Shown here: piece by piece, positions 29,581 to 63,823 of the stretch
Layout of the letters: each line of letters opens with the position of its first letter
How positions within the stretch are numbered: the stretch's first letter is position 1
Origin: Candidatus Yanofskybacteria bacterium RIFCSPHIGHO2_01_FULL_44_24
GTDB taxonomy: Bacteria; Patescibacteriota; Minisyncoccia; 2-02-FULL-40-12; GWA2-44-9
NCBI GenBank assembly: GCA_001794215.1
Contig: MGJK01000012.1
Span: 4,834 to 68,833, forward strand
Direction of reading: 5' to 3'
Length of the DNA stretch: 64,000 nt
Made by a program: the position numbers and the translations under genes
The notes under the pieces: generated by a model
Seen by the model: only the letters and a program-made list of their open reading frames with translations
Databases searched by the model: none
Told to the model about the DNA's origin: nothing

Positions 29581-29588
29581 TAAAATAT

Positions 29589-46979: not shown

Positions 46980-47702
46980 TTGTATAAACAGTATAAAGTA
47001 TTGGGTCTTATTCTTGCTCGCGGAGGTTCCAAGTCTATTCCTAAGAAAAATATTAAACTGCTTGGAGGCAAGCCTTTGCTTGCCCATACGGTTGAAAAAG
47101 CCAAAGCCGCCAAGTACATTGACCGGCTCATCCTTTCCACTGACGATAAAGAGATTGCCGATGTCGGCAGAAAATACGGAGCCGAAGTTCCTTTTACGCG
47201 ACCGGCAGAATTAGCCGAAGACAGCACGACCGACTATCCGGTTTTCGTTCATGCGGTTGAGTGGCTTGAAAAGAACGAGAATTGGAAGCCCGATTTTGTC
47301 GTTCACTTACGGCCGACTCATCCTTTTCGTAAAACTTCAGATATCGATAAAGCCGTAGAAATGCTCGCCGGTAATCCGGAAGCCGATTCTGTTTGGACCG
47401 TTGGGCTGCCTCCGGTGACGCCGTACAAGATGTTTTTGGCCGAAGAAGGCCAATTTATTAAACCAGTCGTTACTATCCCCGGAGTAGATGAGGCGTATAA
47501 TCTTCCTCGTCAGAAACTTCCCAAAGCCTACAACCACTATGGCCAAGTTGATGTTATGAGGCACAATACGTTGATGAAAAAGAAATCAATGTGTGGGAAA
47601 AATATCTTACCTCTTTTCCTTGAAGGAGAATTAGTTGATTTAGATACTCTATTCGATTGGGAGTTCGCGGAGTTTCTAATGAAAAAAGGGAAGATCAGAT
47701 AA
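46980..47702 (+). CDS. CMP-nonulosonic acid synthetase (acylneuraminate cytidylyltransferase NeuA/PseF/LegF family)
   Basis: LGLILARGGSKSIPKKNIKLLGGKPLLAHTVEKA...RLILSTDD is the classical N-terminal CMP-NeuAc/CMP-Kdo synthetase motif. TTG start. Short form without an esterase domain. Confidence 0.75.
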   Translation: MYKQYKVLGLILARGGSKSIPKKNIKLLGGKPLLAHTVEKAKAAKYIDRLILSTDDKEIADVGRKYGAEVPFTRPAELAEDSTTDYPVFVHAVEWLEKNENWKPDFVVHLRPTHPFRKTSDIDKAVEMLAGNPEADSVWTVGLPPVTPYKMFLAEEGQFIKPVVTIPGVDEAYNLPRQKLPKAYNHYGQVDVMRHNTLMKKKSMCGKNILPLFLEGELVDLDTLFDWEFAEFLMKKGKIR

Positions 47703-47784
47703 TTTTTTACTTTTTAATTTTCAATTTTATAATCAATTTTTAAAATTAAAAATTCTAAAATTAAAAATTTAACTTCTTTATAGC

Positions 47785-48792
47785 ATGATTATTCTAATTG
47801 CCGAATCAAATTATTCTCCGGAAGCGGTAAAAGTCTATAAAACCTTAGGGGAGGTTTACTTTTGGTTTCCCGGTAGTAGAAGTTCCGATGGTGACAAAGT
47901 CGCTAAAAGCGTGTCGGAACTTTCACAACCGGACAGGGACCGATTCTTAAGCAAGATAGATATAATAGTTATTCGGCTTATGCTCAATGTCAGAAAAGAT
48001 TTGATTGACCGGATGTCGAATTTGAAAATAATCGCTACTTCCACGACCGGCCTTAATCATATAGACGTGGATTATGCCGAAAAGAGAGGAGTCAAGGTCA
48101 TATCTTTAAGGGGCGAAACGTTGTTTTTGAGAAATATTCCCTCTACCGCCGAAGAAACCTGGGGTTTACTATTGGCTTTGGTCAGGAATCTTCCCTGGGC
48201 TTTTGATGATGTAAAAAACGGAAACTGGACGCCGAATAAATGGGTGGGCCATCAGCTTATGGGTAAAACAATCGGCTTGTTAGGCCTTGGTCGTTTAGGC
48301 AAGATTGTGGCCGAATATGCCGTCGCTTTTAAAATGAATGTGATTTCCTACGATCCGGCCGTAAGCCAAAAGGAAATGAAGAAATACGGCGCCAAAAAGG
48401 TTGCGATGGACTATTTATTTAAAAATTCAGATATTGTTTCTTTGCATGTGTTGTTGAATGATGAAACTTACGGTTTGGTTAAAGACGATCATTTAAAAAT
48501 GATGAAGCCGACGGCTTATCTGATCAATACTGCCCGGGGCGAGCTGATTGAAAAAGGAGGACTGGAATCTGCCCTTGAAAAGAAATGGATTGCCGGAGCG
48601 GCCATTGATGTCATGTGGGACGAAAAGGACGATAGCGGGCATTTAAAAGATAATAAATTAATGGAATATGCCAAGAAAAATACCAATCTCATCATCGTTC
48701 CCCATATCGGCGGAACGACCTATGATGCCACCCGCATTACTCAGGATTTTATTGCGGAATTAGTCAGGAAAAACTGCAAGAAGAGCGGCTAA
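47785..48792 (+). CDS. D-isomer-specific 2-hydroxyacid dehydrogenase family protein
   Basis: NAD-binding GKTIGLLGLGRLGKIVAEYAVAFKMNVISYDP and catalytic-region ARGELIE...PHIGG. Confidence 0.75.
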   Translation: MIILIAESNYSPEAVKVYKTLGEVYFWFPGSRSSDGDKVAKSVSELSQPDRDRFLSKIDIIVIRLMLNVRKDLIDRMSNLKIIATSTTGLNHIDVDYAEKRGVKVISLRGETLFLRNIPSTAEETWGLLLALVRNLPWAFDDVKNGNWTPNKWVGHQLMGKTIGLLGLGRLGKIVAEYAVAFKMNVISYDPAVSQKEMKKYGAKKVAMDYLFKNSDIVSLHVLLNDETYGLVKDDHLKMMKPTAYLINTARGELIEKGGLESALEKKWIAGAAIDVMWDEKDDSGHLKDNKLMEYAKKNTNLIIVPHIGGTTYDATRITQDFIAELVRKNCKKSG

Positions 48793-48801
48793 AATACTTC
48801 G

Positions 48802-49557
48802 ATGGAAAAAAAATCAATACAGGAAATACTCCAGCCACAATACAGTTACCGTACCGTTGAGGACAAAATATTTTTTATTGATCCGCCGTCCGATGTAAAA
48901 ATACATTATCGTCCCAAAGAACGCTGGTCAAGCTGGCGAAAGGCGAACTTTGCTTTTTATGAGGAATATTTAAAAAATGTTCCCTCGGGAAAACTACTTG
49001 ACATCGGAGCCGGTCAGACAGAATTCAAAGACCTCTTGCTCAAATATGATTATATCGGTCTTGATTTTTATCCTCATGAACATGTTCAGATAATTACCGA
49101 TATTACGAAACAGCTTCCTGTAAAGGACGGATCCGTGGATATTATTATTCTGTCCAACGTTTTAGAACACACCCCCGAGCCGGAATTATTGGTTAAAGAA
49201 TGTCTTAGAACGTTGAAAGCGGGCGGACTGTTGCTTGGAACTGTCCCATTTCTGGGCGTAGTTCATCAAGGACCCTATGATTTTTACAGGTATACAAACT
49301 ATATGTTGGAAAGGTTTTTAAGCAACTTCAGTTCTTATAAGGTCATGCCTTTAGGGAAAATGTTTGATGTAAATAAAACTTTTACAACCGTCTTTTTTAA
49401 TAATATTTATCGTATACAGCCGTCTTTAGGCAGAAAACTACTTTTTAAAGTTATTTGGAAAATAATAAGGCTTTTGAATTCTTTAGCCTTTTCCATATCT
49501 CCCTTTTCTTCAACAAACGAATATACCGAAGGATATGGATTCAGGGCGGTTAAATAA
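48802..49557 (+). CDS. class I SAM-dependent methyltransferase
   Basis: Motif I LLDIGAGQTEFKDLL and post-I LKAGGLLLG. Confidence 0.65.
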   Translation: MEKKSIQEILQPQYSYRTVEDKIFFIDPPSDVKIHYRPKERWSSWRKANFAFYEEYLKNVPSGKLLDIGAGQTEFKDLLLKYDYIGLDFYPHEHVQIITDITKQLPVKDGSVDIIILSNVLEHTPEPELLVKECLRTLKAGGLLLGTVPFLGVVHQGPYDFYRYTNYMLERFLSNFSSYKVMPLGKMFDVNKTFTTVFFNNIYRIQPSLGRKLLFKVIWKIIRLLNSLAFSISPFSSTNEYTEGYGFRAVK

Positions 49558-49633
49558 TCGGGTATTCCCGCATTGACATCTCAAATTTTCTCGATACCAT
49601 TGATCAAGAACATAAACAGGGCGAGGTAAAATT

Positions 49634-50065
49634 ATGGCATTGGATTCAAATAAATTCGTACATATTAAGAGGGCAGAGATAGATAAGGCTCTTTCCGTTG
49701 ATTCCGTTGCAGGCAAAAGAATGATTCCGCCCTTCAATGGGTTTTCTGAGCGCCCCTTTGGGATTTTAGAAGATCATCAAGTTAAGGATGGTCTCCCCGA
49801 GATCCACACTCACGAAGAGGATCTTTGGATTGGCCTTGAGGGCGAGGCGATTTTTACTCTCGGGGGCGAGCTTGTCGAACCATATTTCAAGAAGCTTGCT
49901 GACGGCAGCGAGGATGAGCGGGAGATTAAGGGGAAGAGTATCGCGGGCGGTACTGAAGTGATAGTCGGTACTGGCGATGTTTTGTGGATTCCGGCCGGTG
50001 TTCCCCATATGCACACCGCATCAGGAACGGCCCGACTTCTCATCTATAAAAATCCAAAAAGATAG
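49634..50065 (+). CDS. cupin-domain protein
   Basis: LWIGLEGEAIFTLGGE...VLWIPAGVPHMH is the cupin motif pair. Confidence 0.6.
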   Translation: MALDSNKFVHIKRAEIDKALSVDSVAGKRMIPPFNGFSERPFGILEDHQVKDGLPEIHTHEEDLWIGLEGEAIFTLGGELVEPYFKKLADGSEDEREIKGKSIAGGTEVIVGTGDVLWIPAGVPHMHTASGTARLLIYKNPKR

Positions 50066-50078
50066 CCAATAAGCGAAG

Positions 50079-50103
50079 GCCGCCGGAAAATCGGCGGCTT
50101 TTT
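50079..50103 (+). terminator. rho-independent terminator
   Basis: gccgccg gaaaat cggcggc followed by ttttt, 14 nt after the cupin stop. Confidence 0.75.
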
Positions 50104-50186
50104 AGTTGTGACGGTTTACGTTTGACAGAACTCAAAAATATTGATATCATCTGGACACTTTGATCGTTTAAAACGAAGGAGAGGTT

Positions 50187-51137
50187 ATGCAGGTTGGCGA
50201 GAGGTGGATGCGCTGGACATTAGCAGAGGCCGGAACCAAGACTTCTACGAAGCTTCTGCAGAAAGTTGTCGGAGTAACGGCGAGCAGTTGGATCAATGCT
50301 GTCTTTGCAACGACAGTCATTTCGATTGTGCAGGTGTTAGTAGGCTTGTCGGTGGTGACAAGGCAGGGCAAATCCTTGTTTCCCGGTGTTTCTCAGGTTA
50401 CGCTTTCGTGCGCTTTTGGTTTTGTCGCTTTCGTGATGACGACTCTATCTTTCGTGGTCTTTGTTTTTAACGGGGATATTGGAGTTAATACTTTTATCAT
50501 CACTCTTTCCATTGTTCCGGGAGCGATCATTGATCGGGTCTTTTTCGGTCACAAGCTCAATTTCAGGCAATGGATGGGAGTGCTGATGGCTATCTTTGCC
50601 GGCTATGCCGTTCTGGATTTCCCGTCTCTATCGCAAGCGTTCAAAAGTCCGACTTGGGTTTGGCTGTCTCTTGCCACTGCGCTTTTAGCGGCCGTTAATC
50701 AGGGAATCACCCAGAAAAACAAAGCCGTAGATCCTTTTGTGAAAAACTTTTGGGGCGGATTGACCACCTTAATCTCGGGAGTCGTGAGCTTGCTGATCGT
50801 CGGATCCCTGAGTGTTTTCACTGATTTTTCCGTCAGTATGCAGAAGATTTGGTTGATTTCCGCTCTGATGGGCTTTATCATCGTCGGCATGTGGAGTTTC
50901 AACCTCCTGAGCTATAAGGGCGGAGCCAGTATCGCTCTAAAGAAATTAGTCATGAACGGGTCTTATCTTGTTACGGCAATGCTTGGCGGAGTACTGATTT
51001 TCAACGAATCATTGACTGCGGGCAAAGTTTCTGGAATCTTGTTTTTCTTTATTGCCTTTACCTTGATGGACAAAGGAACCTGGGAATTTGTTAGGAAATC
51101 CTTGGGAAGAAAAAACGAGCCCGCCAACGTCGTTTAA
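50187..51137 (+). CDS. polytopic membrane protein (possible DMT/EamA-like transporter)
   Basis: ~10 predicted hydrophobic helices across 316 aa. Good SD aaggagag upstream of the ATG. G+C visibly above the local average. Confidence 0.5.
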   Translation: MQVGERWMRWTLAEAGTKTSTKLLQKVVGVTASSWINAVFATTVISIVQVLVGLSVVTRQGKSLFPGVSQVTLSCAFGFVAFVMTTLSFVVFVFNGDIGVNTFIITLSIVPGAIIDRVFFGHKLNFRQWMGVLMAIFAGYAVLDFPSLSQAFKSPTWVWLSLATALLAAVNQGITQKNKAVDPFVKNFWGGLTTLISGVVSLLIVGSLSVFTDFSVSMQKIWLISALMGFIIVGMWSFNLLSYKGGASIALKKLVMNGSYLVTAMLGGVLIFNESLTAGKVSGILFFFIAFTLMDKGTWEFVRKSLGRKNEPANVV

Positions 51138-51232: not shown

Positions 51233-52345
51233 ATGAAGTTGAAAGATTTTGCCATCACCAATTTTGCTTATGGAAACGGGCCGTATCTAAGGACTACTGA
51301 ACTGGCTCTGTCTTTTAACGACAGGCTTGAAGAGGCCGGAGAAAAAAGATTCGGTATTATTGTTCCCTTGGTTTACGGTGATAAGCAAAAAAGGATTATG
51401 TCTGAAGATTTCGGGACCCGCATGGACGAAATAGTGCTTGATCCGGAGCTGGGAGCGATCCTGAAGGGCGTTTTCTACGATGGGGGCTCTTATTTGGAAT
51501 CTCTCGGGGGGTGGGTTGATAATTTTGAAAAAACTTCGGAATCAATACATAGGTATCTTAAAAATAAATATGGCGATAGCATTGTCGTGGAACTCAATCG
51601 TTCGCCCCGGGTCCGGTATGATATTGCGCCTTCGTATTTCACGTCTTTTGGTTTCATCGGGGAGATATTGGAGAGAATCGGAGAGATCAAGGGTTTGGCG
51701 ATTCCCGAGGGGCTTCTGAATGCCGGTATAAAAACCGCCGGATTGGCCGAGAGCGGCCATAGAATTCACTGCCTCGCTTATCCGGCAACATTCGCACATC
51801 TCAAAGACAGAAGTCCTCGTTGCAAAACCGAAGTCGAAGTTCCGCCCATCATGCTTCCGCCCGCAGTTAATAACGATAACGTCGAGAGAGGCATATACAT
51901 AACGGTAAGCGGAATTGCCGGATTAGGCGATCTTTATGCGAATGCCGGTAAATTCGGTGCGAAAATTTATACCAACAATCCCGATCTTATTCCCGGTAGT
52001 ATAAAGGCCTCGCCCCGCATTATCCCGAACAAAAACATTCTGTTTCAATTTGCCCGTTCCGGCTGGGGCTCAGTTTGGCTATCAATGATTTCCGGGACGC
52101 CTTTAGTCGTTCCCGCTTTTGACTTGAACGACGATCCGGAAATATATTTCAACAATAAGACGATAGAACAACTTGGCATCGGAATAATTTATCGGGGTCA
52201 GCCAATCGAGGAAATACTGGAAGGATGCGCGGAAGTGAAGAAAAACAGCGTTAAGGTTTGCGAGGAGGTCAAGAAACGCTGGGGAACCTTGGATGGCAAT
52301 CGGTATTGCGCCGGATTGTTTGTTAAGGACCTTCTCGGGAAGTAA
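51233..52345 (+). CDS. GT-B fold protein of the MurG/GT28/GT1 type (possibly PseG-like UDP-sugar hydrolase or glycosyltransferase)
   Basis: C-terminal ARSGWGSVWLSMISGTPLVVPAFDLNDDPEIYFNNKTIEQLGIGI matches the GT1/GT28 G-x-G...E...G-x-P.vv.P...DQ/D...NA...G.G signature. Confidence 0.5.
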   Translation: MKLKDFAITNFAYGNGPYLRTTELALSFNDRLEEAGEKRFGIIVPLVYGDKQKRIMSEDFGTRMDEIVLDPELGAILKGVFYDGGSYLESLGGWVDNFEKTSESIHRYLKNKYGDSIVVELNRSPRVRYDIAPSYFTSFGFIGEILERIGEIKGLAIPEGLLNAGIKTAGLAESGHRIHCLAYPATFAHLKDRSPRCKTEVEVPPIMLPPAVNNDNVERGIYITVSGIAGLGDLYANAGKFGAKIYTNNPDLIPGSIKASPRIIPNKNILFQFARSGWGSVWLSMISGTPLVVPAFDLNDDPEIYFNNKTIEQLGIGIIYRGQPIEEILEGCAEVKKNSVKVCEEVKKRWGTLDGNRYCAGLFVKDLLGK

Positions 52346-52368
52346 ATATTACAAATTCATTATGCGGG

Positions 52369-52398
52369 CCGTGTCAAGATTGATACGGCTCTTTTTTT
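52369..52398 (+). terminator. rho-independent terminator
   Basis: ccgtgtcaa gat ttgatacgg is a 9-bp stem with one G-U, followed by ctc ttttttt. Confidence 0.7.
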
Positions 52399-52411
52399 AT
52401 TGTATTGATAT

Positions 52412-53221
52412 ATGGTGGCCAACGAATTATTTGAACAAAAGTGGAGCGAGGCTTTGAAGGGAAAAAAGGGAGAGGAATTCTCCATCTTCGTTCCCAAAGG
52501 AAAAAAACCGCAGACCCAGCGTCAGTTTAATTTATATTATTACTACCGCCTTATAGAGCGGCTGATTAAAGGCCGGAATTATAAGAATAGCATCGAATTC
52601 GGATGCGGCAGGGGAACCATCTCTCTTTATCTAAATCTCTACGGAGGTCTCGACGTTACTCTTTTCGATGTGGATCAGGGCGGGGTTGATTTAGCCCGGG
52701 CTAATTTTGACCTTCACAGAGCCAAGGGTTCTTTTTTTGTGGCCGATAGCGCCAAAGTTCCCATTGCTGATGACAGTTTCGATATTGTGGTGACCATGGG
52801 CTTGCTTGAGCACCTCACCAACTATATTGATAGTCTGAAGGAAATGTACAGAGTCCTTAAGCCGGGAGGAATCATGATATCGATGAATGTACCTAAGAAA
52901 ACATCCATTCAGATTTTGAACAAAATTTATAGAAAGATTCTCGGCGCAGTTAATAAGAAAATAGAGCTGAAGCTGGACTATTTCCGCATAGAAGAAACCC
53001 CGGCCGGGTTCCAGCGTACTGCCGAATTTGTGGGGTTCAAAAATTGTTCAATAATTCACGCCGATCCTCTTCCGCTTTTTACTCCCGTTGCAAAGCCCAT
53101 CGAAAGAACCTTGGCCGTTCTTTATAGAAATTTTATGGAGTTTCGCAAGCTATTTAAGTCTGAGCCGATGGAAACGGGAAGGAGATTGTCGAGGTGCCAT
53201 TTTCTTATAGGCTATAAGTAA
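52412..53221 (+). CDS. class I SAM-dependent methyltransferase
   Basis: Motif I IEFGCGRGTISLYL and post-I LKPGGIMIS. Confidence 0.7.
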   Translation: MVANELFEQKWSEALKGKKGEEFSIFVPKGKKPQTQRQFNLYYYYRLIERLIKGRNYKNSIEFGCGRGTISLYLNLYGGLDVTLFDVDQGGVDLARANFDLHRAKGSFFVADSAKVPIADDSFDIVVTMGLLEHLTNYIDSLKEMYRVLKPGGIMISMNVPKKTSIQILNKIYRKILGAVNKKIELKLDYFRIEETPAGFQRTAEFVGFKNCSIIHADPLPLFTPVAKPIERTLAVLYRNFMEFRKLFKSEPMETGRRLSRCHFLIGYK

Positions 53222-53320
53222 AATTTTTAATTTAGAATTTTTAATTTTCAAAATTGGCCGTTAAAAACCGATTATAAAATTCCTGCCTGCCGGTAGGCAG
53301 GTTAAAGTAAAAAGTAAAAA

Positions 53321-54475
53321 TTGATATCAAGCATGAATGGTTTTAATATTAAAACCCCTTATAGTAGTAGGAGGATAGGCGATAACGCCCCTACTTTTGT
53401 TATAGCCGAAATAGGTAAGAATTTTATCCAGACCAAAAAGGAGAAATCGGTTAAAGAATATCTGAGGAACGCCAAAGAACTGGTAATTTTAGCCAAAAAA
53501 TCCGGAGCTGATGCGGTTAAATTCCAAACCCATAATGTCGAGGATGAACAGCTCAATTTAAAAATAAGAGCCCCGCACTTTAAGGGCGATAGGTACGAAT
53601 GGGTTTCGAGGAATACCAAGGCTACACCGGTTAAAGAGTTTTGGATTCCGCTCAAAGAATTCTGCGATAAGGAAGGAATCACATTTTTCTCTACGCCCTG
53701 CAGTTTAGGAGCCGCAAAGATATTGTCCTCCCTGGATGTGGCTCTGTGGAAAGTCGCCTCTTGGGATATTTTGGATTTTGTTATGCTCGACCATATCAGA
53801 AAAAGCGGCAAACCGGTTATTATTTCCGGCGGAGCCAGTACGGCCGAAGAGATAGACAGATCAATCTCTTATATCCAGGAGAAAAACAAAAATCTTGCCT
53901 TGCTTCATTGTGTTTCCAAGTATCCCTGTCCACCCGAAGAGTTGAATTTGGGTACGATCGGTTTTTTTAAGAAAAGATACGATGTCCCCATAGGTTTTTC
54001 CGATCATTCTTTAGGCATCGAGTCTACCCTGGCCGCCGTTGCCCTGGGAGCTAAGGTGATAGAAAAACATTTCTCCCTGTCCCGAAGCTTATGGGGGGCC
54101 GATCATAGATTTTCCATGACTTCGGCATCGTTTGGTAAAATGGTTACAGAGATAAGGAAAATAGAGGCTAATCCCGGTGCGGCTCAGAAATATTTAAATC
54201 ATGAGAAAGTAAAGCCGAGCCTGAATTTTTCCGGCAAGGTTATCAGAGACGAAGAGAAAAGCATGAAGGCCGTATTTGCCAAGGCTCTTTTTGCCGGACG
54301 GGATATTCCGGCCGGACAAGTTATAAAATCTGATATGTTATACTCAATGAGACCCGGATTGGCGGTCGGAGGACTTCAGCCACTCCACTTCCATATGGTA
54401 GTCGGTCAAAAATCAGCAAAAGATTTGAAGAAGTTCGAACCGATAACGTTAGAAGTTGTAAAATCCGAAATCTGA
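53321..54475 (+). CDS. N-acetylneuraminate-synthase family enzyme (NeuB/PseI/LegI-like) with C-terminal SAF domain
   Basis: FVIAEIGKN...GADAVKFQTH...IGFSDHSLG is the NeuB TIM-barrel region. C-terminal antifreeze-like domain (ARDIPAGQVIKSDMLYSMRPGLAVGG). Confidence 0.8.
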   Translation: MISSMNGFNIKTPYSSRRIGDNAPTFVIAEIGKNFIQTKKEKSVKEYLRNAKELVILAKKSGADAVKFQTHNVEDEQLNLKIRAPHFKGDRYEWVSRNTKATPVKEFWIPLKEFCDKEGITFFSTPCSLGAAKILSSLDVALWKVASWDILDFVMLDHIRKSGKPVIISGGASTAEEIDRSISYIQEKNKNLALLHCVSKYPCPPEELNLGTIGFFKKRYDVPIGFSDHSLGIESTLAAVALGAKVIEKHFSLSRSLWGADHRFSMTSASFGKMVTEIRKIEANPGAAQKYLNHEKVKPSLNFSGKVIRDEEKSMKAVFAKALFAGRDIPAGQVIKSDMLYSMRPGLAVGGLQPLHFHMVVGQKSAKDLKKFEPITLEVVKSEI

Positions 54476-54546
54476 AATCCGAAATTCTAAACAAAGCCCG
54501 AAAATCAGAAATCCTAAATCTGAGATGGTTTGATAGTTTTCTTTAG

Positions 54547-54595
54547 TTTCAATATTCGATATTGTTTCGTTTTTCAACATTCGATATTCGAATTT
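54547..54595 (+). promoter_or_regulatory. conserved T-rich palindromic leader motif copy
   Basis: tttcaatattcgatattgtttcgtttttcaacattcgatattcgaattt, ~14 nt upstream of the ATG at 54609. The A-rich counterpart (aaatccgaaatctgaaatccgaaattctaaacaaagcccgaaaatcagaaatcc, 54458-54520) overlaps the upstream gene's stop. Confidence 0.55.
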
Positions 54596-54608
54596 AAATT
54601 TCTTAGGC

Positions 54609-55922: not shown

Positions 55923-56009
55923 AAAATTATCGTAACCCGCAAAACATAGTTAGCTTTGCGAGTGTCATTAATTTTTAACTTTCATCTCTACGCTTTAATT
56001 TTCCGTACT
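55923..56009 (+). repeat. AT-rich intergenic hairpin element (family copy C, lacking left arm)
   Basis: gaaaaattatcgtaa + hairpin cccgcaaaa-catagttagc-tttgcgag + aatttttaactttcatctctacgctttaatttt, ending at ATG 56010. Confidence 0.55.
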
Positions 56010-57221: not shown

Positions 57222-57243
57222 TGTGTAACTTATCAATATTCGT

Positions 57244-58212
57244 ATGTATACGAGCTATACAAACAAAATCGCCCACGGAATAATGTTTCATCACTTTCAC
57301 GGACGGAAGCATTATAAAGGGCAAGGTTCTTTATCGAGGGAGGGTTTCGAAAGTATTTTGAACTTTATAGGAATTGACCGGATACTTAGTCCGGCCGAAT
57401 GGCTAAGGCGGCTTGATAGCAATCGTTTACAGCCCTCGGATATCTGCATCACATTCGACGATTCTTTAATGTGCCAGTTTGATGTTGCTTTGCCAATTCT
57501 GGAGAGGTATAAGCTTAAGGCTTTTTGGTTTATTTATTCCAATGTCTTTGAAGGGCAGATAAACAAACTCGAGGTTTATCGAGCCTTTCGTTTAAAGAAT
57601 TTTAAGCATGTTGACGAGTTTTATGATGTTTTTTTAGAGAAGGTTTTTGTCTCTGAATTCGGAGAAAAAGCTAAAAAAGCAATAAGCCCAAGCGATTTAC
57701 GGCGCTACCAAAAAACCTTTCCGTTTTATTCACCGAACGACATCAAGTTCAGGTTTATCAGGGACAGGGTATTGCAACCAAGCGACTACGAGTATATAAT
57801 GGACGGCATAATAAAAGATCGTGGTGTCAAAATCGGAGCATTAACCCGAAACTTGTGGATGTCGAACGAGAATTTAAAATACTTAAGTGACAAAGGCCAT
57901 GGTATCGGACTTCATTCTTATTCTCATCCGACCAGGTTAGCCGGACTGGCATATAAAGATCAGCGGATGGAGTACGGTAAAAATTACGAGCACATAGAAA
58001 GCATTACGAGCAGACCGCCATTGGTCGCGGCTCATCCGGTAAATTCTTATGATCTGAACACCTTCCGAATTCTTGAAAAGTTAAATATTCGTTGCGGCTT
58101 TAGATCCAATATGTTTCCAGGAGAGATAACGGGGAAAATAAACGGCCATAAATACGAAATGGCCAGGGAAGACAGCGCCAATATTATTAGGATGATGGAA
58201 AAAAGTAAATGA
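57244..58212 (+). CDS. polysaccharide deacetylase (NodB/CE4-like)
   Basis: ICITFDDSLMCQFDVALPILERYKLKAFWFIYSN (TFDD motif) and a later HSYSHP His-rich motif. Confidence 0.65.
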   Translation: MYTSYTNKIAHGIMFHHFHGRKHYKGQGSLSREGFESILNFIGIDRILSPAEWLRRLDSNRLQPSDICITFDDSLMCQFDVALPILERYKLKAFWFIYSNVFEGQINKLEVYRAFRLKNFKHVDEFYDVFLEKVFVSEFGEKAKKAISPSDLRRYQKTFPFYSPNDIKFRFIRDRVLQPSDYEYIMDGIIKDRGVKIGALTRNLWMSNENLKYLSDKGHGIGLHSYSHPTRLAGLAYKDQRMEYGKNYEHIESITSRPPLVAAHPVNSYDLNTFRILEKLNIRCGFRSNMFPGEITGKINGHKYEMAREDSANIIRMMEKSK

Positions 58213-58231
58213 AATCGAAATCGCAATATCC

Positions 58232-59365
58232 ATGAAAATAAACAGTCATAATGAATGGGATAAGCTGAAAGAAATAATAGTCGGGCGGGCAGAAGGCCAT
58301 GCCCCGCTTGTTTTTCCGCACGGCTTAGTTTCTCCCGAGTTATTGGAAAAATCTGTCAAATTGGCTCGCCAAGCTTATCCCCAGTGGCTAGTTGATGAAA
58401 TTAGCGAGGACTTGGAGGGGCTTTGTGATGTTTTGAAATCTTTCGGCGCCAAGGTTTATAGGCCCGACCTTTCTCATAATAATAAATTGTTTACAACTCC
58501 ATACTTTTCTGCGGTAGGCGACCATGTTTATAATATGAGAGATCTTCACTTGGTAGTCGGCGATAATGTCATTGAGTCGCCTTCGCAGGAGCAACACAGG
58601 TATTTTGAGGCCATGGGCCTGTATCCTATTTGGTATGAGTACTTCAAAGCAGGGGGATTTAAATGGATCGCCGGTCCTAAGCCGCGCATTCCCGGAAATC
58701 ATATGGAAGTCTATACCGTTCAAGGTAAATCTCAGTACGATGATGGCCAGAAATATACTCGGCTTACCGAAGAGGAGATCTTATTCGAGGCCGCTAATAC
58801 TTTGAGAATGGGCCGGGATCTTTTATACCTTGTTTCAAGATCCGGCAATTACCTTGGCGCCAAATGGCTTCAGAGCGTTTTAGGGAGCGATTATCGGGTC
58901 CATACGACCAGTGAAATTTACCGTTCAAGCCATATAGATTCTACCGCCATGGCATTGCGTCCCGGTTTGGTTATGCTCAATGCCACTCGAGTTGATTCAG
59001 AAACGTGTCCTGCGGTTTTTAAAAAGTGGGATAAAATCTATTTTTCTGACATTGTTCCCACGCCGCAAAGAACACTCGATATTCATGAGAAAGTCAGGAA
59101 ACCGGTTCATATTGAATTAGAAAAATTGGGAGTAAAATCAGGCCTGGGATCTATCAGTTCTCCGTGGATAGGCATGAACTTTTTGTCCATAGACCCCAAT
59201 CACGTAGTAGTTGACAAGATTCAGGTGCCTTTGATGAAAATTCTTGAACAGCACGGTATCACGCCGGTACCCATATCTTTCAGACACTCTTACTTTATGG
59301 GCGGTATTCATTGCAGTACGCTCGATACGGTTAGAGAAAGCAAACTTGAAAGTTATGGCGATTAA
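58232..59365 (+). CDS. amidinotransferase-superfamily enzyme (glycine/inosamine amidinotransferase-like)
   Basis: C-terminus FMGGIHCSTLDTVRESKLESYGD closely resembles the catalytic-Cys C-terminus of AGAT/StrB1 amidinotransferases (GGFHC.T.D.RRRG.L.SY.D). Length ~377 aa is appropriate. Confidence 0.6.
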   Translation: MKINSHNEWDKLKEIIVGRAEGHAPLVFPHGLVSPELLEKSVKLARQAYPQWLVDEISEDLEGLCDVLKSFGAKVYRPDLSHNNKLFTTPYFSAVGDHVYNMRDLHLVVGDNVIESPSQEQHRYFEAMGLYPIWYEYFKAGGFKWIAGPKPRIPGNHMEVYTVQGKSQYDDGQKYTRLTEEEILFEAANTLRMGRDLLYLVSRSGNYLGAKWLQSVLGSDYRVHTTSEIYRSSHIDSTAMALRPGLVMLNATRVDSETCPAVFKKWDKIYFSDIVPTPQRTLDIHEKVRKPVHIELEKLGVKSGLGSISSPWIGMNFLSIDPNHVVVDKIQVPLMKILEQHGITPVPISFRHSYFMGGIHCSTLDTVRESKLESYGD

Positions 59366-59380
59366 ATTCAATATAAAAAT

Positions 59381-60586
59381 ATGAGTACAAAATACAAAAA
59401 AATTAAACGAGTTGAGGCGGCTACCCAGAAAACATTTAGGGAAGAAATCCCCTCTATTTATTTTTCTGATAAATCCGAAAAAGAATTTCAAAGATATTCG
59501 AATAACGCGTTGTACACCTATCGAGATTTATTTAAATTTCCACCGAAAATGTTTTCCAATGCGGATCTTATTGATTTTGGCGGGGGTACGGGAGAAAATA
59601 CCGTCACATTAGCCAGATGGGGTGCGAATTGCACGCTTGTAGACATGAACGACAAATCGTTGGCCATAGCCAGACAGGTGTTTAAGCGTTATGCCAAAAC
59701 AGGCAAACATAAATTTCAGCTCTCATCAATATTTGATTATAAATCATCTGCTAAGTATGACATTGTCCATTGTAGGGGAGTTCTAAGCCATACTGCCGAT
59801 AAAGAAGGGGCGTTTAAAAAAATTGCAGGATTTCTTAAGCCCGGCGGATTTCTGATTTTCGGAGATCCCAATAAGGCCGGAGGGTTTCAAAATATGCTTC
59901 AGCGTTTCGCCGTCTATTATCATTCCAAATCAAAGGATGATATGGTTCGGGTAAGTGAAAAACTATTCAAAGAAGATATTGATCGAAGCCAGTCATTTAT
60001 CCCTCGGACTCGAAGGTCAATAATATTTGACCGGTGGGTCATTCAAAACCAAGACGATCCATCCGTCGACGAGGTTATGAGCTGGCTGGGGGCTAATGGT
60101 TTGACCTTGTATTCAGGTTATCCGCCGTTCTCCTTCCCTTTGATCGGAGATTCCGTTCATCACCAACCCAAATTCGACATTTCGCAGGTTCAGGGGTTAG
60201 CTACTATTGCCGAAACTACCTGGTTATTGCAAAGGTACGGCGATCAGGAGAATATCAAGGACTTAAAAGAAGGTTGCTCGGAATACGCCAAGAGGTTTTC
60301 TGATTTAACCAGCTATGTAGCAAATTTCAATTCTAAGTCTGCGCTTGATAAGGCTATGTTTAATAAGTTGATTGACGCCGTCGATGCTTCTTTTAGCAAC
60401 GTATCGGTTTTAAATCCGCTGAAGGTTCGATTGTCAGAATTTACTATTGAAGCAAAACGGTTTGTACATTTAGTCCAGGCGTCTAATCTGGATGAAATCA
60501 GGAAATATATACTCTCCTGCAAGCACCTGTTTAAGGGTGCCTGTGGCGTTCGGCACGTAGATTTCATTGCTTATAAGAACGAATAG
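59381..60586 (+). CDS. class I SAM-dependent methyltransferase
   Basis: Motif I LIDFGGGTGENTVTLARWGA and post-I LKPGGFLIFG. Confidence 0.7.
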   Translation: MSTKYKKIKRVEAATQKTFREEIPSIYFSDKSEKEFQRYSNNALYTYRDLFKFPPKMFSNADLIDFGGGTGENTVTLARWGANCTLVDMNDKSLAIARQVFKRYAKTGKHKFQLSSIFDYKSSAKYDIVHCRGVLSHTADKEGAFKKIAGFLKPGGFLIFGDPNKAGGFQNMLQRFAVYYHSKSKDDMVRVSEKLFKEDIDRSQSFIPRTRRSIIFDRWVIQNQDDPSVDEVMSWLGANGLTLYSGYPPFSFPLIGDSVHHQPKFDISQVQGLATIAETTWLLQRYGDQENIKDLKEGCSEYAKRFSDLTSYVANFNSKSALDKAMFNKLIDAVDASFSNVSVLNPLKVRLSEFTIEAKRFVHLVQASNLDEIRKYILSCKHLFKGACGVRHVDFIAYKNE

Positions 60587-60591
60587 ATATC

Positions 60592-60609
60592 CACGGCCTA
60601 ACGGCCGTG
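60592..60609 (+). terminator. hairpin (terminator-like) at start of GC-rich intergenic region
   Basis: cacggcc taa cggccgtg is a perfect 7-bp stem, 6 nt after the stop. No U-tract. Confidence 0.4.
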
Positions 60610-60881
60610 ATACCCCATGTCTTCGATTTATTCTCGGGATTTGCTTTGGAAAAGAAATTCGGGGTCTATATAATTGCTTCCTCCGCCAACTGGGCGGATC
60701 CGGGTCTGACTTCATCCTCGTGCTAACGCCCGAGGTTTTCGTCGGATCAATTATAAAAAGATGAACCTATGGCGCCCCATAGGGAGCGTACTTCATATTT
60801 TTTTACCATCTATGGCGTCCTATGTCAATATAGCCATAAGCTTAAATATATTGTACATTAGTTTAGTTAATTTAACTCACG

Positions 60882-61589
60882 ATGCCATATAGATCTCAAA
60901 AGATCTTAGTGATTATTCCGGCGCGGGGAGGATCAAAAAGGTTACCCGGTAAGAATATAAAGAAGATCGGCGGAAAGCCGATGATTGCCCATGCGATCGA
61001 AGCGGCCAGGAAATCAAAATATGTCGACAGGGTAGTCGTTTCGACTGATGATAAGGCAATAGCCAGTATTGCGAAAAAATATAAAGCCGAAGTGCCATTT
61101 GTGCGTCCGGCCGAACTTGCCTCTGATACGGCGCCAACCCTCCCTGTTTTACAGCACGTTGTTAAATATGTTGAGGAAAATGATAAATTCAAGCCGGATT
61201 TAGTTGTTCTGATTCAGCCGACAAATCCGCTTGTCAGATCTGAAGATGTGGACGGAACTATAGAAACTTTATTCAAAACCAACACTAATTCCTGCTTTTC
61301 TGTTACTGAAATAAGTCAGAGGCCGGAATGGATGTATAGGATGGATAATAATCCCGCAGAACTTTTTCTAAAAGAAGAATCTGGCCCGACGAAAAGATCA
61401 CAGGAACTTCCCCGACTGGCTATCATAAATGGCACGGTTTATGTAATGAAATACGAAACTCTTATGACAAAAAATAAAATACGGGATGGCAATACGAGTA
61501 TTTATGTGATGCCCCGGGAAAGATCGGTGGATATTGATGATAAGTTTGATTTCGAGTTGGCAAAGTTTTTGTTCCAGAGAAATAAATGA
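60882..61589 (+). CDS. CMP-nonulosonic acid synthetase (NeuA/PseF/LegF family), second copy
   Basis: ILVIIPARGGSKRLPGKNIKKIGGKPMIAHAIEAA...RVVVSTDD. Paralog of 46980. Confidence 0.8.
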   Translation: MPYRSQKILVIIPARGGSKRLPGKNIKKIGGKPMIAHAIEAARKSKYVDRVVVSTDDKAIASIAKKYKAEVPFVRPAELASDTAPTLPVLQHVVKYVEENDKFKPDLVVLIQPTNPLVRSEDVDGTIETLFKTNTNSCFSVTEISQRPEWMYRMDNNPAELFLKEESGPTKRSQELPRLAIINGTVYVMKYETLMTKNKIRDGNTSIYVMPRERSVDIDDKFDFELAKFLFQRNK

Positions 61590-62626
61590 AAAAAATTATA
61601 AAAATTGGAGATAAATTTATTGGAAAAGGTTATCCGGTTTTTGTGATGGCTGAGGCCGGAGTCAACCATAACGGCAAATTAGATCTGGCGCTTAAACTTG
61701 TCGATGCGGCGGCCGATGCCGGAGCCGATGCGATAAAATTCCAAACATTCAGGGCGGAAGAGGTTGTTATAGCCGAGGGTGAGATGGCCGAATATCAAAA
61801 GAAAAATACGGGCAAGAATCAAAGTCAGCTCGCAATGCTTAAGAAATTGGAATTTCAGGAAGAATGGTATCCCAAAGTTATAAAAAGGTGTAAAGAAAGA
61901 GGCATAATATTCCTATCAACTCCTCATGGCGGTTTTGCTTCCGTCGATCTTCTTAATAAGTTTAAAGTCCCAGCCCTTAAATTCGGTTCAGGAGATTTAA
62001 ATAATCTGCCGGTATTAGAATACGCAGCTCGTCTGAATAAGCCGATAATTTTGAGTACGGGGATGGGGAATATGGAAGAAATTAAAGAAGCCGTTAAAAC
62101 CATAAGCAAAAAGGGGAACGATAATCTGATAGTTTTACACTGTACTACGAATTACCCCTGCCCTTTGGAAGAGGTGAATCTAAATGCCATGAAAACCATA
62201 GAAAAAGAAGTTGGTGTTATGACCGGATATTCTGATCATACGGCCGGGTATGATACGGCGGTCATGGCTGTGGTTATGGGTGCACCGCTTATAGAGAAGC
62301 ATCTTACTCTTGATAAAAAAATGAATGGGCCGGACCATAAAGCATCGGCGGATCCGAAAGAATTCAAAGAGATGGTGATGAAAATAAGAAATGTCGGTAT
62401 TGTCATGGGTCAAGGTAAAAAAGAGCCAACTGTATCCGAACTCAAAATGTTGCCATTAGTCAGAAAGAGCGTGGTGACACTGTCTGATATTAAGAAAGGG
62501 GATCTGTTCACCGCTCTTAACATAGGGATCAAAAGACCTGGAACCGGTCTTGCACCTAAATATCATACAGAACTGATCGGCTCAAAATCTAAGAAAGATA
62601 TTAAAGCCGGCACCCTCCTTGACTAA
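61586..62626 (+). CDS. N-acetylneuraminate-synthase family enzyme (NeuB/LegI/PseI-like), second copy
   Basis: VFVMAEAGVNHNGKLDLALKLVDAAADAGADAIKFQTF...GYSDHTAG and a C-terminal SAF domain. Overlaps the upstream gene by 4 nt. Confidence 0.85.
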   Translation: MKKIIKIGDKFIGKGYPVFVMAEAGVNHNGKLDLALKLVDAAADAGADAIKFQTFRAEEVVIAEGEMAEYQKKNTGKNQSQLAMLKKLEFQEEWYPKVIKRCKERGIIFLSTPHGGFASVDLLNKFKVPALKFGSGDLNNLPVLEYAARLNKPIILSTGMGNMEEIKEAVKTISKKGNDNLIVLHCTTNYPCPLEEVNLNAMKTIEKEVGVMTGYSDHTAGYDTAVMAVVMGAPLIEKHLTLDKKMNGPDHKASADPKEFKEMVMKIRNVGIVMGQGKKEPTVSELKMLPLVRKSVVTLSDIKKGDLFTALNIGIKRPGTGLAPKYHTELIGSKSKKDIKAGTLLD

Positions 62627-62680
62627 TCAGCATTTTTATATTACTCTAAGCGGCAGCAAATTGAAAACGGGAGAAATAAA

Positions 62681-63823
62681 ATGAAAAAAATAGCATATAT
62701 TTCAGGTACTCGAGCGGATTTCGGGTTGATGACACCCGTTCTATGGGCTATTGAAAAGAGCTCAAGATTGAATCTTCAAGTTTACGCTACGGGCATCCAT
62801 CTGATGAAAGATTTTGGTTTTACCTTTAATGAAGTCAGGAAAGAATTTCCTAGAGTGAAAAAAATAGAGGCAACCTTTAAATCGGACGACAGAATTGGAA
62901 CTGCCGGTTTCACCGGGGAGTTTATGGGCAGATTTGTGGAGACTCTGGCTGAAGACAAGCCTGATTTTCTCTTGGTTCTTGGCGATAGGATCGAGATGCT
63001 GTGCGCCGCTGTTGCCTGTCTTTACCTCAGGATCCCGGTCGGCCAACTTCACGGAGGAGATAGGAGCAGTACCGTTGATGAATTGGCTCGCCATGCAATC
63101 ACTAAGCTTTCGCATATTCACTTTCCGGCGACCGTAGATGCTGGTGAAAGAATAAAGAAGATGGGTGAGGATGATTGGCGGGTACATGTTGTCGGCGCCC
63201 CGGCTTTAGACATTATTTTGAACAAGCAGTTGCCTACGCGGGAGGAACTATTTAAAAAACTCGGGCTGGATCCGAAAAACAACGTCATTTTAGTCACCCA
63301 ACATCCGGTGAGCGAGGAAATAGAAGATGCCGGATTCCAAATGGAGGAGACTCTATCGGCGGTGAAGACATTCAATCTGCCCGTGGTTGTGACTTACCCT
63401 CATGCCGATGCCGGCGGAAGAAAGATTATCGAGGTTATAGATCGAGAAAAGGGCAATTCTCAATTCCGAATTTTTCCTAGCCTGACTTATAAAGATTTCT
63501 TAGCTCTTGAAAGAGAGTGTGCGGTTTGGGTCGGAAATTCCAGCGGGACGATGATCGAGTCATCTTCTTTTCAAACCCCCGTAGTTGAGGTGGGTGAGCG
63601 TCAGAAGGATAGGGAACATGGCGATAATTTGATAAAGGTCGGATATGACCGCAGAGCGATATCGGCTGCGATAGATAAGTCGCTGAACGACAGAGAATAC
63701 CTGCTCAAATTAACCAAGATAAAGAATCCTTGGGGCGACGGAAAGACCGGTCCGAGAGTCGTTCAAGTGCTCGAAGATTTAAAAATCGATTCCAGATTGT
63801 TGAATAAGCAGATCAGCTATTAG
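62681..63823 (+). CDS. UDP-N-acetylglucosamine 2-epimerase (hydrolysing), NeuC/LegG-like
   Basis: ISGTRADFG...LVLGDRIEMLCAAVACLYLRIPVGQLHGGD is the NeuC pattern (GDR.E and HGG motifs). Confidence 0.8.
   Translation: MKKIAYISGTRADFGLMTPVLWAIEKSSRLNLQVYATGIHLMKDFGFTFNEVRKEFPRVKKIEATFKSDDRIGTAGFTGEFMGRFVETLAEDKPDFLLVLGDRIEMLCAAVACLYLRIPVGQLHGGDRSSTVDELARHAITKLSHIHFPATVDAGERIKKMGEDDWRVHVVGAPALDIILNKQLPTREELFKKLGLDPKNNVILVTQHPVSEEIEDAGFQMEETLSAVKTFNLPVVVTYPHADAGGRKIIEVIDREKGNSQFRIFPSLTYKDFLALERECAVWVGNSSGTMIESSSFQTPVVEVGERQKDREHGDNLIKVGYDRRAISAAIDKSLNDREYLLKLTKIKNPWGDGKTGPRVVQVLEDLKIDSRLLNKQISY

Follow-up and report, generated by a model that had tools for sequence, protein, structure and literature searches.

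Two nonulosonic acid gene sets and a conserved deacetylase, amidinotransferase and methyltransferase cassette in a surface-glycan island of Candidatus Yanofskybacteria

Nonulosonic acids (NulOs) are the outermost sugars on many microbial surfaces, where they govern recognition by phages, hosts and immune lectins. Episymbionts of the Candidate Phyla Radiation (CPR) depend on attachment to their hosts, and their surface chemistry is essentially uncharacterised. A stretch of 64 kb from Candidatus Yanofskybacteria bacterium RIFCSPHIGHO2_01_FULL_44_24 (contig MGJK01000012.1, positions 4,834 to 68,833), hereafter the window, carries two sets of NulO biosynthesis genes with further enzyme genes among them. 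Which sugars would these sets make, and do the accessory genes belong to the same pathways? The organism is an ultra-small groundwater cell of the CPR/Patescibacteria from the Rifle aquifer. The enzymes that diversify NulOs are largely unknown (PMC5378307).

The genes for a deacetylase, an amidinotransferase and a methyltransferase located between the two sets constitute a conserved cassette with a probable tailoring role, for which no description was found in the literature searched. The novelty lies in NulO biosynthesis with this cassette and in a second, lineage-wide module, and not in a categorically new system. The whole window is a glycan-biosynthesis island, and the region with the two NulO sets makes up the distal third of a larger island of surface-glycan genes (more than 75 kb); for this region four functional units are proposed: a legionaminic-type pathway (set 2), the tailoring cassette, the module of set 1 and a group of candidate transferases with an HP motif. 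Between positions 44785 and 63823, 18 open reading frames (ORFs) were found, all in the plus orientation and spaced by -4 to 295 bp. All 16 ORFs described in an earlier note on this DNA were present on the plus strand, at or near the places it gave, and nearly all of its domain calls hold. Domains were called with Pfam and NCBIfam models, from which the equivalog cut-offs were taken. The last 12.4 kb of the window (51586-64000) were 100% identical to four public contigs (L001-L004), namely GenBank LCJR01000019.1 (assembly GCA_000994085.1), two ENA scaffolds and one JGI Rifle-aquifer scaffold. Loci from other genomes and metagenomes are likewise designated below by L numbers.

A probable tailoring cassette between the two gene sets

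The cassette comprises three genes:

57244-58212, plus strand: NodB/CE4-type deacetylase, first gene of the trio (PF01522, E=1.8e-14, 54 bits against a 23-bit cut-off)
58232-59365, plus strand: predicted L-arginine amidinotransferase of the StrB1/AGAT type, second gene (PDB 1bwd, E=2e-68)
59381-60586, plus strand: S-adenosylmethionine (SAM) methyltransferase of 401 amino acids (aa) with a conserved C-terminal extension, third gene (PF13489, PF13847)

Intergenic gaps in this region measured 22, 19 and 15 bp, the last two being those between the trio genes. All three proteins are without transmembrane segments and would therefore be cytoplasmic, with access to arginine and nucleotide sugars. The NodB motifs of the deacetylase, TFDD (residues 71-74) and the metal-binding H224 and H228, were invariant in 44 family members.

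The amidinotransferase gave no significant match to Pfam (arginine deiminase, ADI, model at E=0.026 only). Against the PDB it showed full-length homology to StrB1 (2e-68), SxtG (5e-51), AGAT (1e-47) and HsvA (8e-41), and by these comparisons it sides with the characterised amidinotransferases and not with hydrolases such as ADI and dimethylarginine dimethylaminohydrolase (DDAH). Cys361 and His234 align to the catalytic Cys332 and His227 of StrB1, and Asp104 and Asp236 to Asp108 and Asp229; all four are invariant across the family, the two aspartates being presumably the residues that bind the guanidinium group, as in AGAT. The protein has its catalytic Cys, its catalytic His and its Asp residues for substrate binding in common with StrB1, and differs from StrB1, AGAT, SxtG and HsvA in its regular pairing with a NodB deacetylase. 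StrB1, whose acceptor is an amino group on a sugar-like ring (a six-membered aminocyclitol phosphate), belongs to a different setting from the glycan-biosynthesis context found here, which is not an aminoglycoside, toxin or creatine pathway. The family had 1,078 members at E<=1e-20; among the members listed, identity was 61-100% and none was usefully named.

The earlier note had asked for metagenome neighbours as a check on the linkage of the amidinotransferase. A metagenome scan for this protein retrieved 80 loci with 52-87% identity which, together with three looked-up loci, collapse to 71 distinct ones. Of the 33 loci that extend for 1 kb or more on each side, at least 25 have the deacetylase gene next to that of the amidinotransferase. 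Where the flanks sum to 8 kb or more, 22 of 26 loci contain a NulO core gene, and where they sum to 15 kb or more, 12 of 13 do; in the few exceptions, genes similar to NeuA, PtmE, LegB or LegC, or else a homologue of a 366-aa candidate transferase described below, are still present. The 401-aa methyltransferase is frequent among the loci and, when present, usually adjoins the amidinotransferase (orthologues of 38-74% identity). Hosts include CPR bacteria, Binatia, Rokubacteria and SAR202. In a Giovannonibacteria genome, an unclassified genome and a Binatia genome, a NodB homologue (47-53% identity) adjoins the amidinotransferase within a cluster with NeuB, NeuC-type epimerase, CTP_transf_3 and DegT genes, and the first two of these also carry a homologue of the methyltransferase (53-59% identity). 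The deacetylase and amidinotransferase pair was also found in SAR202 and a related marine locus. Synteny is thus strong and recurrent: the trio stands next to NulO genes in about 70 distinct loci of several phyla, its partners being genes for NeuB, NeuC, NeuA, DegT aminotransferase, dehydratase and hexapeptide acetyltransferase.

In the literature searched, no link was found between an amidinotransferase and nonulosonic, legionaminic or pseudaminic acids or glycan loci, and a guanidino group was not reported for nonulosonic sugars. The suggestion that deacetylation, amidination and methylation form a combination not previously described agrees with these searches, and the synteny shows that the trio is a conserved unit.

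Set 2 and the proposed guanidino sugar

Directly downstream of the trio lie the three genes of set 2:

60882-61589, plus strand: NeuA2, LegF/PseF-like cytidine monophosphate (CMP)-NulO synthetase (PF02348, E=4e-34; PseF model 191 bits, below the 206-bit cut-off)
61586-62626, plus strand: NeuB2, NulO synthase of the NeuB/LegI type (TIGR03569, 433 bits, above the cut-off of 400)
62681-63823, plus strand: NeuC/LegG-type hydrolysing nucleoside diphosphate (NDP)-sugar 2-epimerase (TIGR03568, 374 bits, above the cut-off of 236)

The assignments as NeuA, NeuB and NeuC were confirmed for all three genes, but the set is not the bare NeuABC set of sialic acid synthesis, given that the pathway continues past the end of the window. 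Of the overlapping start and stop codons ascribed to set 2, only those of NeuA2 and NeuB2 were found (4 bp); NeuB2 and NeuC are separated by 54 bp. NeuC reached only 122 bits with the wecB model. The best PDB matches of NeuB2 were Bacillus subtilis SpsE (225 bits), Campylobacter jejuni PseI (197) and Neisseria meningitidis NeuB (184).

On L001-L004, NeuC is followed by a 366-aa Glyphos_transf-like gene on the opposite strand, a hexapeptide acetyltransferase, a DegT aminotransferase and a Polysacc_synt_2 4,6-dehydratase, and further along by a Wzx flippase, a Wzy_C-TPR protein and a Bac_transf initiating transferase. The acetyltransferase, aminotransferase and dehydratase genes sit 0.5-3 kb beyond the end of the window. 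Set 2 and these downstream genes provide, as predicted from their families, the full enzyme complement for a 5,7-diacetamido-3,5,7,9-tetradeoxy-nonulosonate. The route would lead from NDP-N-acetylglucosamine (NDP-GlcNAc) through the 4-keto-6-deoxy and 4-amino sugars to the 2,4-diacetamido sugar, followed by hydrolytic 2-epimerisation, condensation with phosphoenolpyruvate and CMP activation.

A NeuC-type epimerase together with a hexapeptide acetyltransferase are the hallmarks of legionaminic acid synthesis, while the pseudaminic route employs PseG and a GNAT enzyme. The D-glycero-D-galacto configuration is fixed by a retaining (Leg-type) as opposed to an inverting (Pse-type) dehydratase and by the matching aminotransferase. 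Set 2 would accordingly be the proximal half of a legionaminic-type (5,7-diamino-tetradeoxy) pathway, with its gene content observed and its stereochemistry predicted. Six enzyme types are shared with known legionaminic systems (C. jejuni LegB/C/H/G/I/F, the UDP-linked route of Legionella and Acinetobacter, and B. subtilis Sps): 4,6-dehydratase, DegT aminotransferase, hexapeptide N-acetyltransferase, NeuC-type epimerase, NeuB-type synthase and CTP_transf_3. Unlike them, the present cluster has a NeuA2 below the PseF cut-off and adds the deacetylase, amidinotransferase and methyltransferase trio, which to our knowledge does not occur in any characterised legionaminic cluster.

For the trio we infer the chemical steps, and likewise the sugar products, from homology and synteny. 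The N5 acetyl group of these sugars is inherited from GlcNAc and is biosynthetically unavoidable; because of this, a dedicated deacetylase would be expected if N5 is to bear another group. The deacetylase would free one amino group, most likely N5, with its acetyl derived from GlcNAc. The amidinotransferase would form an S-amidino-cysteine intermediate from L-arginine and pass the amidino group to the freed amine, with formation of a guanidino group and release of ornithine, and the methyltransferase would then optionally N-methylate the guanidino product. The trio therefore probably places a guanidino group on the sugar, a scheme whose chemical logic parallels that of AGAT and GAMT in creatine synthesis.

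A functional counterpart would be that of Campylobacter, in which PtmG (LegA)/PtmH and PseA are likewise encoded in NulO clusters and turn a neutral N-acetyl group into a cationic amidine-type group, with optional N-methylation. PtmG and PseA are ATP-dependent amidotransferase-type proteins that convert an existing acetyl to an acetamidino group. Enzyme families and chemistry are unrelated in the two cases, as a CE4 deacetylase and a Cys-His amidinotransferase are proposed here to yield a guanidino and not an acetamidino group.

Set 1, the transferases and the rest of the island

Set 1 and the dehydrogenase gene that precedes it comprise the following features:

44785-46497, plus strand: CBS-fused NDP-sugar 6-dehydrogenase, similar to UDP-ManNAc dehydrogenase (TIGR03026, 369 bits, above the cut-off; CBS domain)
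46980-47702, plus strand: NeuA1, divergent cytidylyltransferase similar to CMP-NulO synthetases (PF02348, CTP_transf_3, E=1e-23; PseF model 156 bits, below the 206-bit cut-off)
47785-48792, plus strand: D-2-hydroxyacid dehydrogenase of the phosphoglycerate dehydrogenase (PGDH) type (PF02826, E=1e-51; best PDB match the PGDH 1wwk, E=6e-49)
48802-49557, plus strand: class I SAM methyltransferase, 251 aa (PF08241, PF13489)
49634-50065, plus strand: small metal-binding cupin, 143 aa (PF07883, E=5e-9)
50187-51137, plus strand: polytopic membrane protein, EamA/DMT-like (at least 8 hydrophobic segments; weak EamA match)
51233-52345, plus strand: predicted member of a new, CPR-specific GT-B-fold family, GT1-like, 370 aa (AlphaFold and Foldseek)
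52412-53221, plus strand: class I SAM methyltransferase, 269 aa (PF08241, E=3e-19)
53333-54475, plus strand: NeuB1, divergent NulO-synthase homologue (PF03102, E=2.5e-70; SAF domain PF08666, E=7.5e-6)

The ORF of NeuB1 opens at a TTG at 53321, and public gene calls begin four codons later, at 53333. NeuB1 scored below both equivalog cut-offs, with 251 bits against 400 for the NeuB model TIGR03569 and 232 against 340 for the PseI model TIGR03586. It has more than 6,000 homologues; the top ones were 55-60% identical and every named one belonged to Patescibacteria. A neighbour-joining tree was built from 131 NeuB-family sequences, three of them solved references. A scan with the NeuB1 alignment, which holds generic NeuB motifs, gave 5 close relatives among 80 loci, the remainder serving as an outgroup panel for this tree. 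NeuB1 fell in a monophyletic, long-stemmed and almost entirely CPR clade, whose sister was a group from Verrucomicrobia, Acidobacteria, Planctomycetes and SAR202, with the group of N. meningitidis NeuB next. NeuB2 was placed in a different large group, with the NeuBs linked to amidinotransferases. The proposal that the two NeuB copies differ in specificity is supported by their identity of about 33%, by the separate clades and by the fact that only NeuB2 passes TIGR03569. The two outcomes named in the earlier note as contrary to its reading of two NulO sets with unusual accessory enzymes were not observed: the NeuB copies do not form one tight cluster, and the accessory genes do recur in synteny, those of the trio in several phyla and those of set 1 in CPR bacteria. 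That reading is supported.

The loci of NeuB1 relatives show the composition of the module:

L173 and L174 (canonical): NeuC-type epimerase passing TIGR03568, CBS-NDP-sugar dehydrogenase, two CTP_transf_3 genes, 2-hydroxyacid dehydrogenase, GT-B and NeuB1
L175: dehydrogenase, NeuA, phosphatase, kinase, cupin, NodB, 2-hydroxyacid dehydrogenase, EamA, GT-B and NeuB; like the window, without NeuC
L176: dehydrogenase fused to a methyltransferase, directly before GT-B and NeuB
L010 (Saccharibacteria): NeuC, NeuA, 2-hydroxyacid dehydrogenase (52% identity), cupin (51%), EamA (57%), two unannotated polytopic membrane ORFs and NeuB1

In L173 and L174 the 2-hydroxyacid dehydrogenase gene overlaps the start of the GT-B gene. 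Orthologues of the CBS-dehydrogenase (549-572 aa) lie between NeuC and NeuA in L173 and L174, at the operon start in L175 and in the methyltransferase fusion of L176. The 2-hydroxyacid dehydrogenase has orthologues of 43-52% identity in the NeuB1-type loci L008, L010 and L014, and the cupin of 44-51% in the NulO loci L010, L012, L090 and L096. EamA genes are also present in L008 and L175, and L014 contains an orthologue of the 269-aa methyltransferase (46%). The window therefore carries a recognisable variant of a module that is, from these gene arrangements, CPR-wide. Compared with the canonical operon, set 1 has additional methyltransferases, cupin and EamA genes, a single NeuA instead of two and no NeuC. 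Two distinct NeuA/NeuB pairs are present, as had been noted, and set 1, which has no NeuC of its own, is not self-sufficient in this genome. The association of NeuB with dehydrogenases reaches beyond CPR, because loci of the sister clade also show it: a 2-hydroxyacid dehydrogenase lies by NeuB in L037 (Pirellulales, 38% identity) and an NDP-sugar dehydrogenase in L050 and L080.

The 370-aa protein encoded by set 1 is an orphan, with no match to Pfam or NCBIfam even at E<=5 and none in the PDB by sequence. Its AlphaFold model, built with 44 homologues, reached a pLDDT (predicted local distance difference test) of 92.7. The nearest structures in Foldseek were GT1 UDP-glycosyltransferases (E=1e-10, TM-score about 0.6); 181 PDB matches were obtained at E<=0.001 with probability 1.0, and the top 50 listed were all glycosyltransferases. 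The family comprises about 400 homologues, all from CPR bacteria and all annotated as 'hypothetical'. The gene adjoins NeuB in L173-L176, and homologues share contigs with NeuB1 homologues. Of the former label 'MurG/PseG-like GT-B', the predicted fold remains; there was no sequence match to PseG or GT28, and the nearest structures are of GT1. A role of this protein as a PseG in place of NeuC, which would make set 1 a pseudaminic set, was set aside as less likely, since its relatives coexist with a true NeuC and no PseG or GT28 signal was present.

Set 1 resembles the N-acetylneuraminic acid (Neu5Ac) system NeuB/NeuC/NeuA of Escherichia coli K1 and N. meningitidis in the TIM-barrel and SAF domain of NeuB1 and in the pairing of NeuB1, in other CPR genomes, with a NeuC-type epimerase and NeuA-type cytidylyltransferases. 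It differs from that system in the sub-cut-off NeuB1 with its own CPR clade and in its ties to the CBS-dehydrogenase, the PGDH-like dehydrogenase and the novel GT-B protein. Our best guess is that set 1 makes a different CMP-activated keto-acid sugar, a sialic-type, 9-oxygenated nonulosonate oxidised or methylated at the glycerol tail. The presence of the sugar 6-dehydrogenase and the 2-hydroxyacid dehydrogenase in one operon suggests that the glycerol tail is oxidised or carries a carboxyl group. In such a nonulosonate, C8-OH and C9-COOH would together form an alpha-hydroxy acid end, on which the methyltransferases and the GT-B protein would act. In the literature searched there was no link between 2-hydroxyacid dehydrogenases and nonulosonic acids, no link of 'ulosaric' or 'guanidino sugar' with legionaminic acid, and nothing that joined nonulosonic acids and Patescibacteria. 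A di-O-methylglyceroyl N-acyl group occurs in C. jejuni 11168; its formation by the 2-hydroxyacid dehydrogenase and the two methyltransferases was considered and set aside, as neither an acyl-activating enzyme nor a carrier protein is present.

Between set 1 and the trio lie two genes with an HP motif:

54609-55922, plus strand: candidate CMP-NulO transferase, 437 aa, GT-B of the TagF/Glyphos_transf/BFO_1060 type (motif YRPHP)
56010-57221, plus strand: protein of 421 aa with the motif YYKPHP in its N-terminal half (the ORF opens at a TTG at 55956)

BFO_1060 of Tannerella forsythia represents a Pse/Leg transferase family with the motifs DXD, D/E-D/E-G and HP (PMC5420450). With the BFO_1060 model the 437-aa protein scored 30 bits (E=2e-7) and the 366-aa protein downstream of NeuC 46 bits (E=3e-12), both matches being partial and far below the 200-bit cut-off. 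The 437-aa protein had no match among PDB sequences, was 25% identical to Pfam-annotated Glyphos_transf proteins in L008 and L014, and was linked to the 366-aa protein by early rounds of profile search; iterative hidden Markov model searches from both proteins drifted into Epimerase_2 by round 3, and early-round links only were used. Both proteins also have links to Pfam Glyphos_transf proteins encoded in other NulO loci. Like BFO_1060/Tanf_01245 of T. forsythia and the TagF-like Glyphos_transf proteins, the two carry the HP motif and are encoded beside CMP-NulO genes.

The 421-aa protein, with no Pfam match, has 179 representative homologues, and H84 and P85 were invariant in 28 homologues. 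Aligned by hhalign, its residues 38-142 matched the C-terminal domain of the TagF/BFO_1060-like set with a probability of 74% (E=3e-5). In many relatives of about 400 aa the two halves correspond in reverse order, the N-terminal HP half of this protein matching their C-terminal half and its C-terminal half their N-terminal one, a pattern suggestive of circular permutation or domain swapping in a GT-B-like enzyme. Unlike in the BFO_1060 family, the HP-motif domain appears to be N-terminal, and the protein may be a domain-permuted relative of this transferase class. BLASTP against the 437-aa protein was not significant (E=0.12, only the HP motif aligned), and a single-sequence AlphaFold model reached a pLDDT of 35 only. 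The description of both as HP-motif GT-B proteins is thus retained for the 437-aa protein, on weak TagF-like/BFO_1060 homology, and in part for the ORF at 55956-57221, of which only the N-terminal HP half is linked to the class. One to three HP-motif proteins would transfer the CMP-sugars to the glycan, which would then be handled by the downstream-encoded Wzx and Wzy_C-TPR proteins. A Wzy_C domain fused to TPR repeats (660-752 aa) is encoded after the NulO genes in most CPR loci (L008, L010, L012, L014, L173-L175 and L002 17565-19802), and this protein may be a ligase or O-oligosaccharyltransferase that places the NulO glycan on its carrier.

Upstream of set 1 the following gene was found:

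40803-41393, plus strand: phosphatase of the KdsC family, haloacid dehalogenase (HAD) type (TIGR01670, 72 bits; KDN-9-P phosphatase model, 52 bits; both below cut-off)

It may act on a NulO-9-phosphate or a Kdo-8-phosphate-type substrate. The segment 40803-44504 holds this gene and one for a cupin similar to mannose-6-phosphate (M6P) isomerase, with a 547-aa nucleotidyltransferase and a GatZ/KbaZ-like aldolase homologue between them. In an ANME (Methanophagaceae) locus (L021, 6957-8836), NeuB is directly followed by the same phosphatase and cupin pair, a possible sign of a phosphorylated route of the Kdn-9-P type or of a third sugar pathway.

The remainder of the island contains GT4 and GT2 glycosyltransferases, sugar C-methyltransferases, a GDP-mannose dehydratase set, ATP-binding cassette (ABC) exporters, WavE-like proteins and a B12 radical-SAM enzyme. 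No Rfam elements or tRNAs were found in the window. A sugar C-methyltransferase gene is apparently split into 11920-12621 (plus strand; zinc-binding and methyltransferase domains of the N-terminal piece) and 13945-14532 (plus strand; C-terminal piece with PF08484) by an rve-integrase ORF at 12637-13875 (minus strand), probably an insertion of an insertion sequence; an intact paralogue is located at 34476-35738, and the AT skew is anomalous in the 2-kb bin of the split gene. Two PF05635 '23S rRNA intervening-sequence protein' genes (8485-8883 and 46558-46908) and a 95-aa GIY-YIG gene (44501-44788) stand among the glycan genes. One of these genes breaks the conserved junction of dehydrogenase and NeuA in set 1, and GIY-YIG copies of 60-83% identity adjoin NulO genes in other CPR loci (L008, L098). 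The large B12-binding radical-SAM enzyme (21069-23027), which may carry out sugar methylation or rearrangement, recurs within NulO/glycan clusters (L174 2477-4531; L118 16700-18400). On the minus strand, 25967-33178 encodes two ABC half-transporters, a short-chain dehydrogenase/reductase-type epimerase/reductase, a NUDIX protein, a DegT aminotransferase and a GDP-mannose 4,6-dehydratase; this block, whose orientation is opposite to that of the remaining island genes, resembles a GDP-perosamine-like pathway with an exporter.

Alternative readings and meaning

The best explanation of the region, which we hold with slightly better than even confidence, takes the four units together: a legionaminic-type pathway, the trio cassette, the set 1 module and the HP-motif transferases. 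A wider proposal goes further and is put forward tentatively, as possible though somewhat short of probable. According to it, a widespread pair of CE4 deacetylase and arginine-dependent amidinotransferase, often with an N-methyltransferase, makes legionaminic-type sugars with a 5- or 7-(N-methyl)guanidino group on many bacterial surfaces and, separately, CPR bacteria make a second, unnamed NulO-like sugar by means of their own NeuB clade, an NDP-sugar dehydrogenase, a PGDH-like enzyme and the new GT-B family. Every chemical step and both sugar products in these proposals are predicted, and several points weigh against them. The dehydratase fits PseB best (307 bits, below the cut-off of 408; LegB model 76 bits), as the aminotransferase fits PseC (341 bits, below 424; LegC 288 bits, cut-off 420). 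These two enzymes are nearer to PseB/PseC than to LegB/LegC, in which the cluster differs from legionaminic systems, and the sugar may for this reason be a stereoisomer other than legionaminic acid. In the amidinotransferase, Asp179 of the StrB1 triad is replaced by Glu186 in all 19 aligned family members, a difference from StrB1, and only some 40% of the long loci contain the methyltransferase gene. Neither NeuA1 nor NeuB1 reaches any equivalog cut-off, set 1 is without an epimerase of its own in this genome, the neighbour-joining tree is based on simple distances and includes just three characterised references, and the roles given to both dehydrogenases, to the cupin and to the EamA and GT-B proteins are guesses.

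The trio might act not on a nonulosonate but on an earlier intermediate at the hexose stage, for example at the free 4-amino group of an NDP-4-amino-4,6-dideoxy-HexNAc or on a de-N-acetylated bacillosamine-type sugar, or else on a different amino sugar within the same glycan, so that the guanidino group would be carried by a hexosamine or by N7 of the NulO. In L091 and L118 the cassette directly adjoins early-step genes (PtmE-like nucleotidyltransferase, dehydratase, aminotransferase), in L108 and L110 it stands with glycosyltransferases and with no NeuB within 10 kb, and the closest solved relative of the amidinotransferase, StrB1, acts on a six-membered aminocyclitol phosphate. A free 4-amino acceptor, however, would need no deacetylase, yet the deacetylase is the most constant partner, and the N-acetyltransferase is kept in the same clusters. 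Moreover, NeuC- and NeuB-type enzymes are generally taken to require the 2-acetamido group, a point in favour of tailoring after condensation. The analogous acetamidino change of Campylobacter was reported at the CMP-sugar stage (PMC5378307). Action at the hexose stage is, on this balance, unlikely. A somewhat larger share of probability, though still on the unlikely side, is given to the possibility that set 1 makes an ordinary sialic acid (Neu5Ac, or Kdn by a phosphorylated route), NeuB1 being a divergent CPR orthologue of Neu5Ac synthase, while the dehydrogenases, GT-B protein, cupin and methyltransferases would build neighbouring residues such as N-acetylmannosaminuronic acid (ManNAcA) or decorate sialic acid after transfer. 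The NeuB1 clade is nearer to the group of N. meningitidis NeuB than to PseI or SpsE in the tree, the NeuC of its relatives passes the hydrolysing-epimerase model with no dehydratase or aminotransferase inside their operon, and a KdsC/Kdn-9-P-phosphatase-like HAD protein and an M6P-isomerase-like cupin are encoded upstream. ManNAcA is a known neighbour of NulO in the T. forsythia glycan (PMC5420450). Against an ordinary sialic acid stands the distance of NeuB1 from the cut-off for Neu5Ac synthases given above. The genes of the NDP-sugar dehydrogenase, the 2-hydroxyacid dehydrogenase and the GT-B protein also interleave and partly overlap with those of NeuA and NeuB in several CPR lineages, a tighter arrangement than would be expected for enzymes of other residues, and in L176 the dehydrogenase and methyltransferase fusion lies directly upstream of GT-B and NeuB.

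It is very improbable that the arrangement is a chance or decaying mosaic from the traffic of mobile elements in a hypervariable glycan island, with set 1 as a non-functional remnant. The integrase insertion in the C-methyltransferase gene, the two intervening-sequence protein genes and the GIY-YIG gene would agree with such traffic, as would the single NeuA and missing NeuC of set 1 against the two NeuA and one NeuC of the canonical operon. However, all ORFs are intact and co-oriented with short gaps, L175 has the same NeuC-less layout in another organism, and 21 contigs, assembled separately from many samples, carry the identical sequence. Dozens of unrelated, independent contigs repeat these gene combinations, and the clustering is therefore far beyond chance.

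If the proposal of guanidino sugars is true, many uncultured bacteria of water and soil, as well as CPR bacteria, Binatia, Rokubacteria and SAR202, would display natural guanidino-NulOs on their cell surfaces. Zanamivir is a synthetic 4-guanidino sialic acid drug, which such sugars would resemble in this group. They would add to this sugar family a cationic substituent that is new in the light of the literature searched, and the three genes would be a toolkit for the chemo-enzymatic preparation of sialic acid analogues. The amidinotransferase family (more than 1,000 members) and the GT-B family (about 400) are currently without useful annotation. For CPR bacteria, the two NulO modules, one of them conserved across the radiation, are concrete targets for the study of their surface chemistry.

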